NCBI RefSeq assembly: GCF_018350175.1
Contig: NC_058368.1
Span: 18,974,001-19,038,000, forward strand
Length of the DNA stretch: 64,000 nucleotides
From: Felis catus
Lineage: Eukaryota
Direction: 5' to 3'
Part shown: positions 42,936 through 53,338 of the stretch, one piece after another
Layout: each line of letters opens with the position of its first letter
Numbering within the stretch: position 1 is the first letter of the stretch
The notes under the pieces: model-generated
Seen by the model: the letters and a program-made list of their open reading frames with translations, nothing else
What the model was told of the DNA's origin: nothing
Database searches by the model: none
Made by a program: the position numbers and the translations under genes

Positions 42936-44742
42936 GACAACCCATTTTTACTGTAGAAAGAAACATAGGTAAAAGGATTACTTCACCTAGTCCTGCCATT
43001 CATAATTAGTTCACACCGAGTATGTATCTTTCCATATTTCTGTGGACATACACATGTATAAGTACTTGTACAAAGATAGGAACATACTATGAATATCTTG
43101 GTGTCAGTTTAAACCTGTATTTTATTGTATGTGCACATAGGTCTGTACGATTAAGACTGCATTCCTTCTGCTGTAGGGATACACCAAAATTTATTTAATT
43201 ACTTGTCACTGGACATTTTTGTTTCACGAATATTTACACATTGTAAACTCCCCTAAAACAATATCTTTGTGGTATAATTATTTCCTTAGGACAAAGTCCT
43301 AGAAATGGAATTGCAGGGTTTAAGAGATTATGAGCATTTGTAAGGCTTTATAACCTCTTTGGTGTGTATCTGTTTTCTCTCTTCCAAACAATTTCCTCTC
43401 TGCGGTGAATCCCCAGTCTATAGCTTTCAGCACAGGTGAAGACAGCCCGAACACCCCACTGACACTTGTGTTCAGTCCGTCAGCCTTCAGGTAGTTGAGC
43501 AGCCGACACATGACCTGGAATGCAGAGATGTTGTTCTCTTGACACCACAGGGGCAATATGGAATATCCTTCTCTTGAGGGATATTTTCACCGAAGATCCA
43601 GATGGGTGCAATCCCTCTGCCATATCTGAGAATCTGTTCTGGCTCATGGGCTATTTTACTTATTTATTTTTAATTTTTTTTAATCTTTATTTTTGAGAGA
43701 GAGAAAGAGAGAGACAGCACAAGCGGGGGGAGGGGCAGAGAGAGAGGGAGACACAGAACTGGAAACAGGCTCCAGCCTCCAAGCTGTCAGCACAGAGCCT
43801 GATGTGGGGCTGGAACTCACAGGCCGCGAGATCATGACTGGAGCCAAAGTCTGACGCTTAATTGACTGAGCCACCCAGGCGCCCCTCAAGGGCTATTTTA
43901 TTTTTAAACTTCTGGAAAATTTTATCTTCCTTGGATTTTTGTTTTGCCAGGGAATCCAATTCTTCAGGTACTTATGGTTCCCATAATTTCTGATTCATTT
44001 GCTTTTTCAACAACTTCAGGTGTAATCTCATCTTGTTTCTATTATGATTCCAAATTCTGGAAAAAAGTTGTGGTCTGGTATTGTTCTGTCCAAATAATCT
44101 GATTGTGTGCAAGCGTGCTTATGTCCCAGTCTCCAGTCTAAGGGCCTGACGCTCCTTGTGCAATAAGGTGCCTTGGGACGCCTGGAGCATGTTTGGGGGC
44201 CTACACAGCCACAAACCCTGCAGAGATGAGCATCAGACTTGAGCTGGAGGCACACAGACTCACCTGTCTCTGGACGAGGTATCCTCAGAAGGTGGCCCAT
44301 ATGTGTAAAAGTCATTTTTCCAAGGTAGCTGATTTCTAAAAACAATTGATTAACTCAAAAGCTGGGGCCCAGAATGCGCAAGGGAGCGGGGTGGGAGTGG
44401 GGACCGGGCGCTGCGCGGGACCACGCCCCCTTCGCCTTGGCCGGCCCCTACCTTGCGAGACCAGCCGCCTTCCCGGTCCTGGCCCGGGAACAGCGGCTGT
44501 CTGCCGCGTGGGCCTGCGCATCATGGTGGCGCCCGGCAGCAGAAGAGGAAGAGGCCGCGGCGGAAGGCGTCGGCGCGGTCGGCAGCTGCGGTGGAGCTGT
44601 AGCGAGGGGGCCAGCTCTTCTGGCCCTGGCAGCCCCGCCTCCCACCTTGCTTGGGAACTGCCGGCTGCCACGTGGGCCCTGCCTCCGCGAAGCCTAACTC
44701 AGGCGGCCGCCACTGGCCGCCACCATGGAGCCTGAGGGGCCC
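42935..44742 (-). pseudogene. PDCD2: Processed pseudogene of PDCD2, interrupted by a SINE; 3' boundary uncertain
   Basis: ATG at 44726. Remnants [41 protein letters not shown] (MYND finger), [24 protein letters not shown] and [12 protein letters not shown]. Downstream exons are joined without introns, with many frameshifts and stops. Coding homology ends ~43355; sequence below that is presumed 3'UTR. Confidence 0.92.
43659..43885 (-). mobile_element. CanSINE inserted in the PDCD2 pseudogene
   Basis: tRNA-derived head, (CT)n and A-rich tail. TSD TCA(T/A)GGGCTATTTTA at 43644-43658 and 43886-43900. Confidence 0.92.
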
Positions 44743-46999
44743 CTTTATCGCCTCCTCTTTGCCTCTTCATCCGCCAGTGGGCGCTTGGGTTATCCATATC
44801 TTGGCTATTCTAATGCAGGGAACCTAGGGGTGTATGTATCTTTTTGAATTAGTGTTTTTGGTTTTCCTGGGTAAATAGCCAGTAATGGAACGAATCGATC
44901 ACGTGGTATTTCTGTTTTTAACTTTTTGAGGAACCCGCCAACATGCTTTTTTCCCTTGTGGCTGCACTGATGTACATTCCCACTACTAGTGTTTAAGAGT
45001 TTCTTCTTCTCTGCATCCTTGCCAACGCTGGTTATTTCTTGTCTTTTTGATTCTACCCATTCTGATAGGTATTAGGTCATATCTCGTTGTGGTTTGGATT
45101 TGCTTTTCCCTGATTAGTGATGCTGAGCATCTTCATGGATCTGTTGGCCATTTAGATATGTTTAGAAAAATGTATATTCAGGTCCACTGCCCTTTTTTGT
45201 TTTTAATGTTCCAGAGAGAGAGAGCGTGAGTAGGGGAGGGCCAGAGAGAGAGGAAGACACAGAACCTGAAGCAGGCTCTAGGCTCTGAGCTATCAGCACA
45301 GAGCCAGATGCAGGGCTCAACCCCAAGAACCCTGGAGGTCATGACCTGAGCCGCTTAACAGACTGAGCCACCCAGATGCCCCCCCCCCCCGCCATTTTTT
45401 AAATTTGATTGGGTTTTTTTTGATGTTGAGTTATAGAAGTTCTTTATGTATTTTGAATATCAACTCCCTATCAATATCATTTGCAAATATTCTCTTCCAT
45501 TTAGTAGGTTTTTTGTTTTATTGATGGTTTCCTTCACTGTGCAGAAGCTTTTTTATTGTAGTGTGGTCCCAATAGTTTATTTTTACTTTTGTTTCCCTTG
45601 CCTTAGGAGACCTATCTTGAAAAATGTTGCTATGACCAATGTCAAAGGACTTACTGCCTATGTTTTCTTCTAGAAGTTTTATGTTCTCAGGTCTCACATT
45701 TAGGTCTTTAATCCGTTTTGAGTTTATGGTGGAAGAGTTTATTTTTGTGTATGGTGGAAGAAAGTAGTCCATTTTCATTCTTTTGCATATAGCCATCCCT
45801 TTCCCAGCACCGTTTATAGAAGAGTCTTTCTTTTCCCTATTGTATATTCTTCCCTTCTTTGTCACTGAGTAATTGACTCTATAAGTGTGGGTTTGTTTCT
45901 GGGCTCTCTGTTCTGTTCCATTAATCTATGTGTCTACTTTTGTGCCAGTACCATACTGTTTTGATTATTACGGCTTTGTAGTATATCTTTTTTTAAAAGA
46001 AAAGGTTTAATATAAAGATTCAAGATTCACATTAATACATATGATAAAATTAAATACCTTCTTGATAAGAGTTCAGGTTTCGCATTTTTTTCTATTTACC
46101 CTGCCATATTTTTCCTGTGCTTTTTTTTTTTATTACTTTAACCCCACCTCTGTCTATAGTTCAGAAAGTCTACTTCTACAGAAGCTATGATGATTAATAT
46201 TAATTTTAATATACTCTTTAACTTTCCCAACATCTGGGTAGTATCTATAACATGCTTTTCCCCTGCTTCCCAACTACTTTAGCTGTCCATCCTCCTAGGT
46301 AGAAATGTGACATTTTATTTTCCAGTTTCCTTGTTTACTTTTGGTGTGGGAAGAAGATAATGTATATTGTGTGTATTTATAGTCACCCTAGATTGAAAGA
46401 ATTGTTGGAGTATATACTTTAGCAAAGGGGCGGGGGATGCAAGAAATAAACTTTGTGGATGCTTTGGTATCAAAACATGTTCTTGTTTTACCTTCGACGT
46501 CAAATGCCAGTTTGGCTGGGTATGGCATTCTAGGTTTAAAGCCTTTTGCCTGAAGAACTTTTATGATATTGCTCCGTTTACTTCTAGCATCCAGAGTATC
46601 CAATAAGCCTGCCATCAGTCTGATTCTTGTTCCTCTGTACGTTCTCTCTTCTCTTTCTGTAAGCCTTTATGATTTTTTTCTTTATCATTGGAATTCCAAG
46701 ATTTCACCAAGATGTGTCTAGGAGCAAGTCTGTTTTCGTCACTCTTACTAGCTACTTGGTAAGCACTGATCCTCTCAAAACTTGAATCTGTCTTTACCTC
46801 TGGAAAGTTTTCTTCAATTATTTCCTTAATTATTTCCTCTGCTCCATGCTCTTCATTATCTTTTTTCTGGAATTCCTGTCAAAATGGATGTTGGAGCTTC
46901 TGGGTCTACCCTCTGTGTCTCGTGATCTTTTTTTTTTTTTTTTAATGTTTATTTGTTTTTTGCAGCATGATCTCATTTTTATTTTCATTTTTAACATTA

Positions 47000-47345
47000 A
47001 ACTTTTTTAAAATAATTTATTTTTAAATTTACATCCAAGTTAGCCTATAGTCAACAGTGATTTCAGGAGTAGATTCCTTAATGCCCCCTCCACATTCCCT
47101 CCAGCAACCCTCTGTTTGTTCTCTATATTTAAGAGTCTCTTATGTTTTGTTCCCCTCCCTGTTTTTATTTTTGGTTCCCTTCCCTTATGGTCATCTGTTT
47201 TGTATCTTAAGTCCTTATATTAGTGAAGTCATATTTGTCTTTCTCTGACTAATTTCACTTAGCATAATACCCTCTAGTTCCATCCACGTAGTTGCAAATG
47301 GCAAGATTTCATTCTTTTTGATTGCTGAGTAATACTCCATTTTGC

Positions 47346-47393
<48 letters not shown>

Positions 47394-50300
47394 ACCACAT
47401 CTTCTTTATCCATTCATCCATTGATGGATATTTGGGCTCTTTCCATACTTTGGCTATTGTTGATAGTGCTGCTATAAACATTGGGGTGCATGTGCCCCTT
47501 CAAAACAGCATACCTGTAGTGCTGATGCATAGGGGCACTTGTACCCCAATGTTTATAGCAGCACTTTCAACAATAGCCAAAATATGGAAAGAGCCTAAAT
47601 GTCCATCAACTGATGAATGGATAAAGAAATTATGGTTTATATACACAATGGAACACTACGTGGCAATGAGAAAGAATGAAATATGACCTTTTGTAGCAAT
47701 GTGGATGGAACTGGAGAGTGTTATGCCAAGTGAAATAAGTCATACAGAGAAAGACAGATACCATATGTTTTCACTCTTATGTGGATCCTGAGAAACTTAA
47801 CAGAAGATCGTGGGGGAGGGGAAGGAAAAAAAAGGGGGAGGGAGCCAAACCATAAGAGACTCTTAAAAACTGAGAACAATCTGAGGGTTGATGGGGGGTG
47901 AGAGGGAGGGAAGGTTGGGTGATGGGTATTGAGGAGGGCACCTGTTGGGATGAGCACTGGGTGTTGTATGGAAACCAATTTGACAATAAATTTCATATTA
48001 AAACAGCATACCTGTATCCCTTGGATAAATACCTAATAGTGCAATTGCTGGGTTGTAGGGTAGTTCTATTTTTAATTTTTTGAGGAAGTTTCATACTGTT
48101 TTCCAGAGTGGCTGCACTAGTTTGCATTCCCACTAGCAGCGCAAAAGAGATCCTTTCTCCGCATCCTCGCCAACATCTGTTATTGCCTGAGTTGTTAATG
48201 TTAGCCATTCTGACGAGTGTGAGGTAGTATCTCCTTGTGGTTTTGATTTGCATTTCCCTGATGAGGAGTGATGTTGAGCATTTTTTCGTGTGTCAGTTGG
48301 CCATCTGGATGTCTTCTTTGGAGATGTGTCTATTCATGTCTTTTGCCCATTTCTTCACTGGATTATTTGTTTTTTGGGTGTTGAGTTTCAGAAGTTCTTT
48401 ATAGATTTTGGATACTAACCCTTTATCTGATATGTCATTTGCAAACATCTTCTCCCATTCCATCAATTGCCTTTGAGTTTTGCTGATTGTTTCCTTTGCT
48501 GTGCAGAAGCTTTTTGTTTTGATGAGGTCCCAATAGTTCATTTTTGCATTTGTTTTCCTTGCCTCCGGAGATGTGTTGAGTAAGAAGTTACTGCAGCCGA
48601 GGTCAAAGAGGTTTTTGCCTGCTTTCTCCTCGAGGATTTTGATGGCTTCCTGTCTTACGTTTAGGTCTTTCATCCATGTTGAGTTTATTTTTGTGTGTGG
48701 TGTAAAAAAGTGGTCCCGGTTCATTTTTCTGCATGTTGCTGTCTGGTTTTCCCAGCACCACTTGCTGAAGAGACTGTCTTTATTCCATTGCTTGTCAAAG
48801 ACTAGTTGGCTATATGTTTGTGGGTCCACTTCTGGGTTCTTTATTCTGTTCCATTGATCTGAGTGTCTGTTTTTGTGCCAGTACCATATTTTCTTGATTA
48901 CAGTTTTGTAATACAGCTTGAAGTCCAGGATTGTGAGGTCTCCATCTTTGTTTTTCTTTTTCAAGATTGCTTTGGCTATTCGGGATCTTTTCTGGTTCCA
49001 TACAAATTTTAGGATTGTTTGTTCTAGCTCTGTGGAGAATGCTGGTGCTATTTTGATAGATATTGCATTGGATATGTAGGTTGCTTTGGGTAATGACATC
49101 TTAACACCATTCTTCCTATCTAGGAGCATGGAATATTTTTCCTTTTGTGTGTGTGTGTCTTCTTCAGTTTCTTTCATAACCTTTCTATAGTTTTCAGTAT
49201 ATAGATTTTTCACCTCTTTGGTTAGATTTATTCCTGGGTATTTTATGGGTTTTGGTGCAGTTGTAAATGGGCTTGTTTCCTTGATTTCTCTTTCTGTTGC
49301 TTCATTGTTGTGTACAGAAATGTAACTGATTCCTGTGCATTGATTTTATATCCTGTGACCTTGCTGAATTCATGGATCAGTTCTAGCAGTTTTTTGGTGG
49401 AATCTTTTCGGTGTTCCATATAGAGTATCATGTCATCTGGAAAGAGTGAAAGTTCGACCTCCTCCTGGCCAATTTGGATGCCTTTTATTTCTTTATGTTG
49501 TCTGATTGCTGAGGCTAAGACTTCCAATACTACGTTGAATAATAGTGGTGAGGGTGGACATCCCTGTCTTGTTCCTGACCTTAGGGGGAAAGCTCTCAGT
49601 TTTTCCCCACTGAAGATGGTAGTTAACATTGGGTCTTTCGTATATGGCTTTTATGATCTCGAGGTATGCTCCTTCTATCCCTACTTTCTTGAGGGTTTTT
49701 ATCAAGAAAGGATGCTGTGTTTTGTCAAATGCTTCCTCTGCATGTATTGAAAAGATCATGTGGTTCTTTTCCTTTCTTTTATTGATGTGATGTATCACAT
49801 TGATTGTTTTGCAGATATTGAACCAGCCCTGCATCCCGGGTATAAATCCCACTTGGTCATAGTGAATAATATTTTTAATGTATTGTTGGATCCTGTTGGC
49901 TTGTATCTTGTTGGGGACTTTTGCATCTATGTTCATCAGAGAAATTGGTCTATACTTCTGTTTTTTAATGGGGTCTTTGTCTGGTTTTGGAATCAAGGTA
50001 TTGCTGGCTTCATAGAAAGAGTTTTCCTTCCGTTTCTATTTTTTGGAACAGCTTTAAGAGAATAGGTGTTAACTTCTTCAAATGTTTAGTAGAATTCCCC
50101 TGGAAAGTCATCTGGCCCTGGACTCTTGTTTTTTGGGAGAATTTTGATTACTAATCTGATTTCTTTACTGGTTGTGGGTCTGTTCAAATTTTCTATTTCT
50201 TCCTGTTTCAGTTTTGGTAGTGTATATGCTTCTAGGAATTTGTCCGTTTCTTCCAGATTGCACGTTTTATTGGCATATAATTGCTTATAATATTCTCTTA

Positions 50301-50465
50301 TTATTGTTTATATTCTGTGTTGGTTGTGATCTCTCCTCTTTCATTCTTGATTTTATTTATTTGGGTCCTTTTTCTTTTTGATCAAACTGGCTAGGGGTTT
50401 GTCAATTTTGTTAATTCTTTCAAAGAACCAGCTTCATTGATCTGTTTTAGTGTTTTGTTTTTTTG
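47000..50465 (-). mobile_element. 5'-truncated L1 (RT and C-terminal ORF2 plus 3'UTR) inside the L1TD1 retrocopy
   Basis: ORF2 fragments [35 protein letters not shown] and the 306-aa ORF at 48293-49213, all frameshifted. Confidence 0.92.
47519..47999 (+). mobile_element. Younger L1 3' fragment inserted antiparallel into the L1 above
   Basis: L1 3' end ending AATAAATTTCATATT, flanked by a perfect 17-bp TSD AAAACAGCATACCTGTA (47502-47518 and 48000-48016). Confidence 0.92.
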
Positions 50466-51095
50466 TTTGTTTGACTTCCTCCCTAGCTCCATGCTTTGAA
50501 TCTGGTAGAGTTTTATCCATTTTTTCTTAAGTCCGATATCGTCCTCTTTTTTTTCATTTTGTGGGCATGTATCTTTCAGTAATTCTTTTATAAATGATTT
50601 TTGGCTGGTAAATTTGCTGAGCCTTTGCAAAATGTCCTTACTTCACCATGCTTAATGCTTAAATGCTAATTTAACTTGGCCTAGAAAGTTAGGTTCAAAA
50701 TCATTTTCCATTAGGATGTTGAAGACATTGTTTCATTGCTTACTAATGTCCATCGTTGCTGATAAAAAGTCTGCTGCCATGAGTATTGCTCCTTTATCTT
50801 TACCAGAGGTTTTTTAGAATTTTCTGTTTGTTCTTTAAATTCTGAGGGATTTTTTTCCTGTTATTCTTTGACCACTTCATCCTCTTCAATCTCTCTTTCT
50901 CTCCTGTTACTTCTGCAAGGTGCTGCAATCTCTGCATCCATCACTATATTGCTGATGGCTTCTTCCACACTTCTCATGACTTTGTGAGTTTGTGATTCAT
51001 CATGGGACAGTTCCTTACCTTGGTTTGTATCGTACACTTTAGCTTCATCTAACTTGCTACTCAGATCACTAATTTCTTTGAAAGTCAAATTTTCA

Positions 51096-51293
51096 GGGCA
51101 CCTGGGTGCTCAGTTGGTTAAGTGGCTGACTTGATTTCAGTTCAGGTCATGATCTCATGGTACATGGGTTCAAGCCCCACGTTGGGCTCTGCGCTGACAT
51201 CATGGAGCCTGCTTAGGATTCTCACTTTCTCCCTCTTTCTGCCCCTTCCTTGCCCATGTTCTTTCTATCAAAAATAAACAAACATTTTTTTTT
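51096..51293 (+). mobile_element. CanSINE in the L1TD1 retrocopy
   Basis: TSD AAAGTCAAATTTTCA at 51081-51095 and 51294-51308. Confidence 0.9.
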
Positions 51294-51468
51294 AAAGTCA
51301 AATTTTCAATATCCTCAACTACTTTAGAGTTTGCTCTTTCTATTTTCTTTATCTTATTTTTCGTGTGGCTAAATCTTTGTTGCCACTCCTTTTTGGTACT
51401 GGAGTTCTTTGGATTTTTCATTTCAGATATGTACTTTTTATTCCTAAAATTTCCTTTAGGTCATTTTT

Positions 51469-51674
51469 AAAAAAATTTTTTTAACGTTTATTTATTTTTG
51501 AGACAGAGAGCATGAATGGGGGAGGGTCAGAGAGAGGGAGACACAGAATCCGAAACAGGCTCCAGGCTCTGAGCTGTCAGCACAGAGCCCTACGCGGGGC
51601 TCGAACTCACAGACGGTGAGATCGTGACCTGAGCTGAAACCGGTGCTCAACCGACTGAGCCACCCAGGCGCCCC
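51469..51674 (-). mobile_element. CanSINE in the L1TD1 retrocopy
   Basis: TSD CCTTTAGGTCATTTTT at 51453-51468 and 51675-51690. Confidence 0.9.
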
Positions 51675-51790
51675 CCTTTAGGTCATTTTTAAGAGATTCC
51701 CTTATCTCTTTAACCAGCAAGGCAGATTTTCCATCAAGCCTTTAAATTTCATATTTATTGATATGTCTTTGCATTTTTAATTAATTTTTT

Positions 51791-52171
51791 ATTTTTTGCA
51801 TGCATGAGTACTTTATTCATTTTTTAATTTTAATTTACATCCAAATTAGCATATAGTGCAACAATGATTTCGAGTATATTCCTTAATGCCCCTTACCCAT
51901 TTAGCCCATCCCCCCTCCCACAACCCCTCCAGTAACCCTCTGTTTCTTCTCCATATTTAAGAGTCTCTTCTGTTTTGTCCTCCTCCCTGTTTTTATTATT
52001 TTTGCTTCCCTTCCTTATGTTCATCTGTTTTGTGTCTTAAAGTTCTCATATGAGTGAAGTCATATGATTGTTTTTCTCTGACTAATTTCACTTAACATAA
52101 TATCCTTCAGTTCCATCCACGTAGTTGCAAATGGCAAGATTTTATTCTTTTTGATTGCTGACTAATACTCC

Positions 52172-52231
<60 letters not shown>

Positions 52232-52473
52232 AAATCACATCTTCTTTATCCATTCATCCATTGATGGACATTTGGGCTCTTTCCATACTTTGGCTATTGT
52301 TGATAGTGCTCCTATAAACATTGGGGTGCATGTGTCCCTTCGAAACAGCACACCTGTATCCCTTGGATAAATACCTGGTAGTGCAATTGCTGGGTCCTAG
52401 GGTAGTTCTAGTTTTAGTTTTTGGAGGAACCTCCATACTGTTTTCCAGAGTGGCTGCACCAGCTTGCATTCCC
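51791..52473 (-). mobile_element. L1 3' fragment inserted in the tail of a SINE within the L1TD1 retrocopy
   Basis: L1 ORF2-end/3'UTR homology. TSD AATTAATTTTTT at 51779-51790 and 52474-52485. Confidence 0.8.
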
Positions 52474-52485
52474 AATTAATTTTTT

Positions 52486-52694
52486 AAATGTTTTATTTAT
52501 TTTTGAGAGAGATAGTTTGTGGGTGGGAGGGGGGCAGAGAGAGAGAGAGAGAGGGAGACAAAGAATCCGAAGCAGGCTTCAGGCTCTGAGCTGTCAGCAC
52601 AGAGCCCAATGCGGGACTCAAACTCATGAACTTCGAGATTGTGACCTGAGCCAAAGTCAGACACCTAACCAACAGAGCCACCAGGCGCTCCTTC
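52486..52694 (-). mobile_element. CanSINE in the L1TD1 retrocopy, tail split by an L1
   Basis: TSD ATGTCTTT(G/A)CATTTT at ~51763-51777 and ~52695-52709 encloses both this SINE and the L1 fragment. Confidence 0.85.
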
Positions 52695-53111
52695 ATGTCT
52701 TTACATTTTAAATCTAATACCTAAACCATCTCCTGGTCATTTTCATCAACTGAATTCTTTCCCTATAGGTGACATTTTCCTATTTCTTTGCAAATCTAGA
52801 AATTTATGACAGTACATAAGACATCGTGGCTATGTTGTCAAAACTGGATAGTTTTATTTTCCTGAAGAGTAATTTTTGTTTTTGCAGACTTGCTAGACCT
52901 TCCCAAACTCAGGAAATTAAAAAAAATATATATCATCCAGGGAGGATCATTCACCTGGGAGGAAGTACTCTGCAGAGTAGGATTTGGTCTTCTGTACAGC
53001 TGTGTCTTAGTGCCTGGAGAAGGAATCCCGCCTGAGGATGCACACATGGACCAAAGGCTTTGTAGTGTATCTTGAAATCTGGGATCATGATGCCTCAAGC
53101 TTTGTTGTTCT

Positions 53112-53338
53112 TTTTCTTTAAAAAAATTTTTTTTTTCAACGTTTATTTATTTTTGGGACAGAGAGAGACAGAGCATGAATGGGGGAGGGGCAGAGAGAGA
53201 GGGAGACACAGAATTGGAAACAGGCTCCAGGCTCCGAGCCATCAGCCCAGAGCCCGACGCGGGGCTCGAACTCCCGGACCGCGAGATCGTGACCTGGCTG
53301 AAGTCGGACGCTTAACCGACTGCGCCACCCAGGCGCCC
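53112..53338 (-). mobile_element. Young felid SINE in the host L1
   Basis: Consensus-like body with flanking TGTTGTTCTTTTTC repeat. Confidence 0.88.

Follow-up and report, generated by a model that had tools for sequence, protein, structure and literature searches.

A 7-kb insert in a cat LINE-1 element is almost certainly a processed copy of the host gene L1TD1

When peptides resembling the product of open reading frame 1 (ORF1) of long interspersed element 1 (LINE-1, L1) occur in L1-rich DNA, the question is whether they belong to L1 debris or to a copy of a host gene. This question is raised by a 7,066-bp insert (45990-53055, minus strand) that interrupts ORF2 of an older L1 in a 64-kb stretch of the cat genome (Felis catus, NC_058368.1, positions 18,974,001 to 19,038,000; the whole stretch is called the window, and its contig C1). 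An earlier note on this DNA proposed a retrocopy of L1TD1, a host gene derived from L1 ORF1. Our analysis leads to the conclusion that the insert is almost certainly an L1-mediated processed pseudogene (retrocopy) of L1TD1. The hallmarks of such pseudogenes are the absence of introns, an end at the poly(A) site with an A tail and a target-site duplication (TSD) of 7-20 bp, together with a T-rich/A-rich nick site and neutral decay.

Insertion site and source of the insert

The insert is enclosed by the motif GGCTTTGTAGT[A/G]TATCTT, which has exactly two matches in the window, whereas two or more matches were found in 0 of 100 dinucleotide-preserving shuffles. The two copies agree at 17 of 18 positions and are placed as follows:

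45972-45989, no strand: TSD copy adjoining the 3' end of the retrocopy, one of the two motif matches
53056-53073, no strand: TSD copy adjoining the 5' end of the retrocopy, the second motif match
53074-53120, minus strand: host L1 ORF2, resuming straight from 45971/45989 (gapless alignment to the nested L1)

The empty site was rebuilt by joining 45800-45989 to 53074-53125, and it aligned without a gap across the join to the ORF2 region (48748-48963) of an L1 nested within the insert. Without the insert and one TSD copy the host L1 is continuous, and its flanks form a single stretch of ORF2 on the minus strand. The 18-mer is therefore a genuine TSD that interrupts the host L1 ORF2, as the earlier note had claimed. 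A Pfam scan of four translated host-L1 fragments gave no match, so the host L1 was identified by its alignment to the nested L1. The plus-strand nick site, TATCTT/GAAATC, is a pyrimidine run followed by a purine run and is not identical to the L1 endonuclease consensus, TTTT/AA.

The source of the insert is one locus of the same genome, C17:50962009-50979643, on a different contig from the window copy; the alignment with the insert extends over 50962019-50979643. In a blastn search of the insert against 50 kb around this locus, five collinear matches were obtained on a single strand, and the sequence between them matched dispersed short interspersed elements (SINEs) or L1s. The matches are all on the minus strand of the window:

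52911-52694: parent 50974095-50974297
51785-51675: parent 50974273-50974391, 82% identity
51470-51285: parent 50974374-50974569, 85% identity
51095-50474: parent 50974546-50977638
46955-45993: parent 50978657-50979643

The pieces are about 76-86% identical to the parent at the nucleotide level and collinear over 3.3 kb of mRNA, including both untranslated regions (UTRs). The five pieces proposed in the earlier note were correct to about 16 nt and are refined here to 45993-46955, 50474-51095, 51285-51470, 51675-51785 and 52694-53055. Its estimate of a leader of about 230 nt before an ATG at 52824 was also accurate: the leader is 231 nt, and the ATG occupies 52824-52822.

The parental gene consists of four exons, two 5' UTR exons and two coding exons. 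A genome-wide search with a 161-nt leader found no match except the leader itself, and the UTR exons (about 50962019-50962050 and 50963191-50963265) were located by sensitive local blastn of the 5' leader. The coding exons are open over 369 and 555 codons, stop to stop, and splicing them at GTG/GTAAGT...TTCAG/GG gives an 868-codon ORF with no internal stop. In protein comparisons against lists of 22 and 73 proteins, the product of coding exon 1 is 98% identical to the Herpailurus and Puma proteins named 'LINE-1 type transposase domain-containing protein 1' and 73-82% identical to L1TD1 of hyaena, meerkat, seals, bears, canids and mustelids; the named carnivoran matches among those listed are all L1TD1 or 'hypothetical protein' gene models. 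The exon/intron layout agrees with the one that McLaughlin et al. 2014 list for dog L1TD1 (PLoS Genet 10:e1004531, PMC4161310; Table S2), with 975 bp in exon 1, about 2.6 kb in the intron and 1620 bp in exon 2. From the protein identity and the dog-like gene structure, the C17 parent is therefore the intact L1TD1 of this genome. According to the same paper, intact L1TD1 occurs only at the INADL-KANK4 locus (PMC4161310). The window copy, on C1, is not at the intron-bearing L1TD1 locus on C17 and lacks the INADL/PATJ-KANK4 synteny of an orthologue; one Callithrix gene model joins PATJ to L1TD1, consistent with the published synteny.

Three parental introns of 1,140, 10,809 and 2,442 bp are absent to the base in the copy. 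The exon joins were read from one local alignment of the insert with the spliced parental mRNA:

parent exon ends 50962050/50963191: window join 53014/53013, border CAG/GTAAGG...TAG/GC
parent exon ends 50963265/50974075: window join 52937/52936, border TGG/GTAAGC...CAG/AT
parent exon ends 50975152/50977595: window join 50518/50517, border GTG/GTAAGT...TTCAG/GG

The parent has a GT donor and an AG acceptor at every intron missing from the copy, and two of the three missing introns are in the 5' UTR. The intronless join of the coding exons reported in the earlier note is thus present at an exact GT-AG border, but three introns are missing and not one. At the 3' end, parent and copy have AATCTTGAATCTTTATATTAAA in common, and the homology stops about 17 nt past ATTAAA. 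Beyond this point the parent continues as unrelated DNA, whereas in the copy 5-7 A lead into the TSD. The poly(A) signal that had been predicted at one end is the ATTAAA at 46006-46011, and the tail predicted with it amounts to just 5 A (7 with the first two A of the TSD).

Searches of the cat's own 2.43-Gb assembly pointed to the same source. A 491-nt insert piece matched itself, C17:50978737-50979181 at 86% and four trivial stretches of 43-61 nt. Conversely, parental coding exon 1 and the C-terminal part of exon 2 found the window copy at 78-85% identity, and the remaining DNA matches were no longer than 240 nt and confined to the conserved ORF1-like core. The sole other locus with more than 75% identity over more than 300 nt is the L1TD1 gene, not the many copies of an L1 or HAL1 family. 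In a six-frame search with the exon 1 protein, the parent was recovered at 100% and the window copy at 55% over residues 220-334, its longest uninterrupted stretch, while L1 ORF1 copies reached at most 38% (118 of 14,630 candidates were scored, so counts are lower bounds). Placed on the parental codon grid, with X at breaks, the retrocopy is 65-72% identical to the cat L1TD1 protein, and a comparison of its two ORF1-like halves gives 26-28% identity. Among eight translated retrocopy fragments, six had no significant Pfam match. Two, which belong to the second ORF1-like unit, passed the cut-offs of PF17490 (at 35.5 bits) and PF02994 (at 22.5 bits). The earlier note had named L1TD1 rather than ordinary ORF1p and had proposed a best-match check against L1/HAL1 and an alignment of the flanking segments to the L1TD1 UTRs. 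In the cat's own genome L1TD1 is the better match, and both UTRs align to parental UTR exons.

Age, decay and internal anatomy

The age of the copy was examined by IQ-TREE with 27 protein rows, in which retrocopy and parent were accompanied by 15 further L1TD1 proteins of carnivorans and 10 of horses, bats, primates and xenarthrans. The 25 proteins other than retrocopy and parent were hand-picked from 73 listed, and pangolin is not among the rows. A clade of Feliformia and Caniformia excludes the retrocopy (support 100/98), and the retrocopy together with Carnivora excludes horses and bats (100/99). Constraining the retrocopy to group with Feliformia was 21 log-likelihood units worse (approximately unbiased (AU) test, p = 0.003), a constraint chosen after the tree had been seen. 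Lineage-specific sites in the retrocopy were distributed as follows:

feliform-specific sites (n = 7): derived 0, ancestral 5, other 2
carnivoran-specific sites (n = 8): derived 5, ancestral 2, other 1
felid-specific sites (n = 5): derived 2, ancestral 3, other 0

These data make a stem-carnivoran origin probable, and the dating to a carnivore ancestor in the earlier note is backed by the protein tree. Such an origin would make the copy about 55-75 million years old. The age, which rests on the tree, stays a prediction, according to which the site would be filled in dogs, bears and seals.

The 5' UTR also contains information on the order of events. The retrocopy has 16 nt just upstream of the ATG (52837-52852) that are missing in the cat parent at C17:50974154. 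A primer published for exon 1 of primate L1TD1 (PMC4161310) has a 22-nt core that matches 52828-52849 on the minus strand with 2 mismatches, a match found in 0 of 100 shuffles, and this primer covers the extra stretch. As the 16 nt are present in the retrocopy and the primate primer and not in the cat gene, they were therefore deleted in the parental lineage after copying.

The remains of the transcript and the repeats nested in them are arranged as follows:

45990-45994, minus strand: poly(A) tail remnant, where parental homology stops
45995-46396, minus strand: L1TD1 3' UTR with the ATTAAA; parent 50979215-50979643, 83.8% over 376 aligned bases
46397-46955, minus strand: C-terminal coding part, second ORF1-like unit (RRM-like and C-terminal domain (CTD)), about parental codons 687-868; 84% identity to parent 50978657-50979214, with PF02994 and PF17490 above cut-offs
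46956-50473, minus strand: nested younger 5'-truncated L1 of 3.5 kb with a 16-A tail; RVT_1 at 49493-50035, E = 3e-19
about 47520-48002, plus strand: L1 3' fragment inside the nested L1, flanked by the repeat AAAACAGCATACCTGTA
50474-50517, minus strand: first 44 nt of parental coding exon 2 (parent 50977595 = window 50517)
50518-51095, minus strand: 3' part of coding exon 1, first ORF1-like CTD; exon 1/exon 2 join at 50518/50517
51096-51293, no strand: nested SINE, with direct repeat AAAGTCAAATTTTCA at 51081-51095 and 51294-51308
51309-51470, minus strand: coding exon 1 piece, 85% identity to parent
51471-51674, no strand: nested younger SINE flanked by CCTTTAGGTCATTTTTAA, up to 91% identity to dispersed copies
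51675-51785, minus strand: coding exon 1 piece, 82% identity to parent
51786-52693, minus strand: nested composite in which a SINE (about 52475-52693) adjoins an L1 3'-end fragment (about 51786-52474); flanking repeat ATGTCTTT[G/A]CATTTT
52694-52824, minus strand: N-terminal coding part of exon 1, with the ATG kept at 52824-52822
52825-53055, minus strand: 5' UTR of 231 nt (exon A 53055-53014, exon B 53013-52937, exon 1 non-coding 52936-52825)

Coding exon 1 is interrupted by the two SINEs and the L1-plus-SINE composite, each with a flanking direct repeat. The insert at 51096-51293, which we take to be a SINE, has dozens of matches of 68-77% to dispersed copies in the 50-kb parental region. 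One of the two nested-L1 fragments submitted to Pfam matched (RVT_1), and no TSD was seen around the nested L1 at 46956-50473. The window lacks about 1.02 kb of coding exon 2 (parent 50977639-50978656; 343 codons), which encodes the Glu-rich linker together with the second coiled coil, and the nested L1 occupies its place. A genome-wide search with the parental Glu-rich linker (1021 nt) found only the parent and low-complexity matches, which means that no other place in the window or the genome holds the missing kilobase. We infer that it was lost as a deletion tied to the nested L1 insertion.

In the parental frame the copy carries 5 stops and 25 frameshifting indels. It represents 519 of the 868 parental codons, 352 of them identical, and has no intact ORF with two ORF1-like units as in an L1TD1 orthologue, which the 868-codon parent retains frame-wise. 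The Kimura two-parameter distance (K2P) between copy and parent is 0.25 in the 5' UTR, 0.18 in the 3' UTR and 0.18, 0.14 and 0.21 at codon positions 1, 2 and 3. This near-flat pattern is the one expected when one partner decays neutrally. Judged from its reading frame, the retrocopy is dead and has no protein-coding function now. The insertion was found in 20 public runs from 10 studies, carrying the same organism label or derived from gut samples, and 19 of the 20 hold at least half of the sampled words. This shows that the insertion is common or fixed in the labelled organism, and the public runs say only that.

Alternative explanations and the proposed route

Ordinary L1 or HAL1 (ORF1-only) debris could resemble L1TD1 merely because L1TD1 derives from L1 ORF1, and two fragments do match the L1 ORF1 families PF02994 and PF17490 in a region full of L1 pieces. 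HAL1 and L1 ORF1 are distant homologues whose RRM-like domain and CTD match these families. However, they are multi-copy and their protein identity to the parent is at most 38% among the candidates scored, against 55-72% for the copy, which has a single intron-bearing source. Every piece has single-copy L1TD1 as its best non-self match (76-86%, collinear over 3.3 kb), and the exon joins coincide with three parental GT-AG introns. The genome-wide searches refute an identity as L1/HAL1 debris, and we regard this origin as extremely improbable. A DNA-level (segmental) duplicate of L1TD1 from which introns were deleted afterwards would fit the collinearity with the parent, which is nothing specific, but the three introns are gone to the base at splice borders, and the copy stops at the poly(A) cleavage region with an A run and has the 18-bp TSD at the transcript ends. 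No intronic, promoter-flanking or beyond-transcript parental DNA was found inside the TSD by blastn of the insert against the parental region. This origin is, in our estimate, less probable still.

Two further explanations accept an L1TD1 retrocopy and differ in its age or its role. The copy might have arisen later, within Feliformia or Felidae, and have been placed basally by a long-branch artefact. Its end branch is long (0.27), its top pairwise identity is to a felid (Herpailurus, 72%), and 2 of the 5 felid-specific sites are derived in it. However, the AU test (p = 0.003) rejects any grouping with Feliformia or position inside it, none of the 7 feliform-specific sites is derived, K distances of about 0.18-0.25 in the UTRs and at third codon positions are in keeping with an age of tens of millions of years, and the copy keeps the 16 nt of 5' UTR lost from the cat parent and retained in the primate primer sequence, so we consider a younger age unlikely. 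The retrocopy might also be functional, once or now, as a temporary retrogene or as a transcribed regulatory RNA acting on L1TD1 or L1. The start codon is kept, and some runs recorded or guessed as RNA contain 5' junction contigs, which may be DNA or intronic read-through. Against this, the frame is broken by 5 stops and 25 frameshifts and lacks 40% of its codons, the copy was hit by at least four repeat insertion events, the three codon positions diverged almost equally, and the 5' flank, as read from the sequence, is L1 ORF2 with nothing promoter-like. A function therefore appears very unlikely.

Several observations fit less well with an L1-mediated copy of stem-carnivoran age. With 5-7 A, the poly(A) tail is very short, the 5'-most 10 nt (53055-53046) are outside the scored local alignment, though seemingly alignable, and the nick TCTT/GAAA agrees only loosely with the endonuclease consensus TTTT/AA. 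As for the age, the tree contains proteins only, and the retrocopy is a neutral long branch (0.27) that may be drawn basally. The AU constraint was named post hoc, and the derived state at 2 of 5 felid-specific sites is a small signal to the contrary.

For the L1-mediated retrocopy of L1TD1, we propose a route in which the enzyme, L1 ORF2p, and the tissue are inferred from the established knowledge of processed pseudogenes. Acting in trans in germline or early-embryonic cells, L1 ORF2p would have picked up a spliced, polyadenylated, near-full-length L1TD1 mRNA. The animal would have been a stem carnivoran, living later than the separation from horses and bats and earlier than that of cat-like and dog-like carnivores. 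Target-primed reverse transcription would have begun at the plus-strand nick TATCTT/GAAATC inside the older L1 ORF2, and a second-strand break staggered by 18 bp would have generated the TSD. Lacking its own promoter, the copy then decayed neutrally and received at least four repeat insertion events: the two SINEs, the L1-plus-SINE composite and the 3.5-kb L1, itself struck by another L1 fragment. We reject the idea that landing inside an L1 is meaningful, as targeting is backed by no test and L1 is abundant, forming a large share of mammalian DNA.

Meaning, related copies and neighbouring features

The value of the copy is mainly archival, and it reveals no new mechanism or functional element. 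It would preserve a stem-carnivoran L1TD1 transcript and indicate that stem carnivorans already used the four-exon structure, the start codon and the poly(A) site, that L1TD1 was then expressed in cells feeding the germline, and that 16 nt of 5' UTR have since been lost from the cat gene. It is also a warning for annotation, because ORF1-like peptides in L1-rich DNA may belong to the retrocopy of a host gene. Compared with generic L1-mediated processed pseudogenes, the window copy shows no mechanistic difference; its one oddity is that an mRNA for a protein derived from L1 ORF1 was copied, and copied into an L1. Compared with functional L1TD1 (ECAT11), the copy has 79-85% nucleotide identity, the same ATG, exon order and poly(A) signal and parts of both ORF1-like units, whereas it lies at another locus and has no introns, open frame, Glu-rich linker or second coiled coil.

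According to a recent paper, the L1TD1 protein binds the transcript of its own gene, which ranks among the top RNAs of L1TD1 ribonucleoproteins (RNPs), and the protein interacts with L1 ORF1p and L1 RNPs (eLife 2025, PMC11925450). Because L1TD1 binds its own mRNA and is located in L1 RNPs, the transcript could reach ORF2p more often than equally abundant ones. L1TD1 mRNA might then be a preferred trans-template for L1, an idea we consider unlikely. If it were true, an excess of L1TD1 retrocopies would be expected across mammals, and the window copy would record a coupling of L1TD1 and L1 in stem carnivorans. The cat genome has at least two independent L1TD1 retrocopies, the window copy and a 3'-UTR-only copy on C22, and at least four are described for bushbaby in the 2014 paper (PMC4161310).

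The C22 fragment (C22:56016573-56016958, minus strand) contains only the last 368 nt of the 3' UTR. It is 76% identical to the parent and has the same ATTAAA end, an A7 tail and the direct repeat ATAAATTTATGT, and it is a typical 5'-truncated retrocopy.

Processed L1TD1 pseudogenes have been reported before (McLaughlin et al. 2014, PMC4161310). As described in that paper, they have the same parent gene and mechanism, are intron-less and lie outside the INADL-KANK4 locus, and both they and the window copy can be used as a fossil of transcript structure. The window copy differs in species and event, is much older by the tree, is broken by nested repeats and carries two 5' UTR exons. Cat is absent from Table S2 of the paper, and 'felis' occurs 0 times in 8 supplementary files. 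To judge by titles and abstract openings, none of the papers listed by literature searches on L1TD1 pseudogenes deals with carnivoran L1TD1 retrocopies.

Three Mirounga leonina 'hypothetical proteins' (P0015, P0021 and P0022), on three contigs, are 79-99% identical to parts of seal L1TD1, and two of the three models skip from the middle of coding exon 1 into exon 2. As candidates for caniform orthologues of the retrocopy they were rejected, their identity being 55-62% to the retrocopy and 79-99% to seal L1TD1. They are perhaps retrocopies of L1TD1 made in the seal lineage, or copies that were modelled wrongly.

Long (GT)n/(TG)n microsatellites are present at 47345-47392 and 52176-52228, at the equivalent position in two nested L1 3'-end fragments. 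Such microsatellites seem to characterise the family to which these carnivore L1 3' ends belong.

About 1.2 kb from the insert lies a neighbouring processed pseudogene (43300-44780, minus strand), an intron-less, frameshifted copy of a MYND zinc-finger gene with an atlas score of 0.92 to zf-MYND clusters. A Pfam scan of three of its fragments gave nothing at E <= 0.01; its peptides resemble PDCD2. In its alignment, adjacent query ends occur at about 438 and 680, and a SINE is nested at about 880-1130 of the query. Its apparent source gene, C13:151883016-151884571, matches exon by exon, the downstream two exons at 89-90% and the first at 65%. A further contiguous copy of the MYND gene is located at C2:2129460-2130220.

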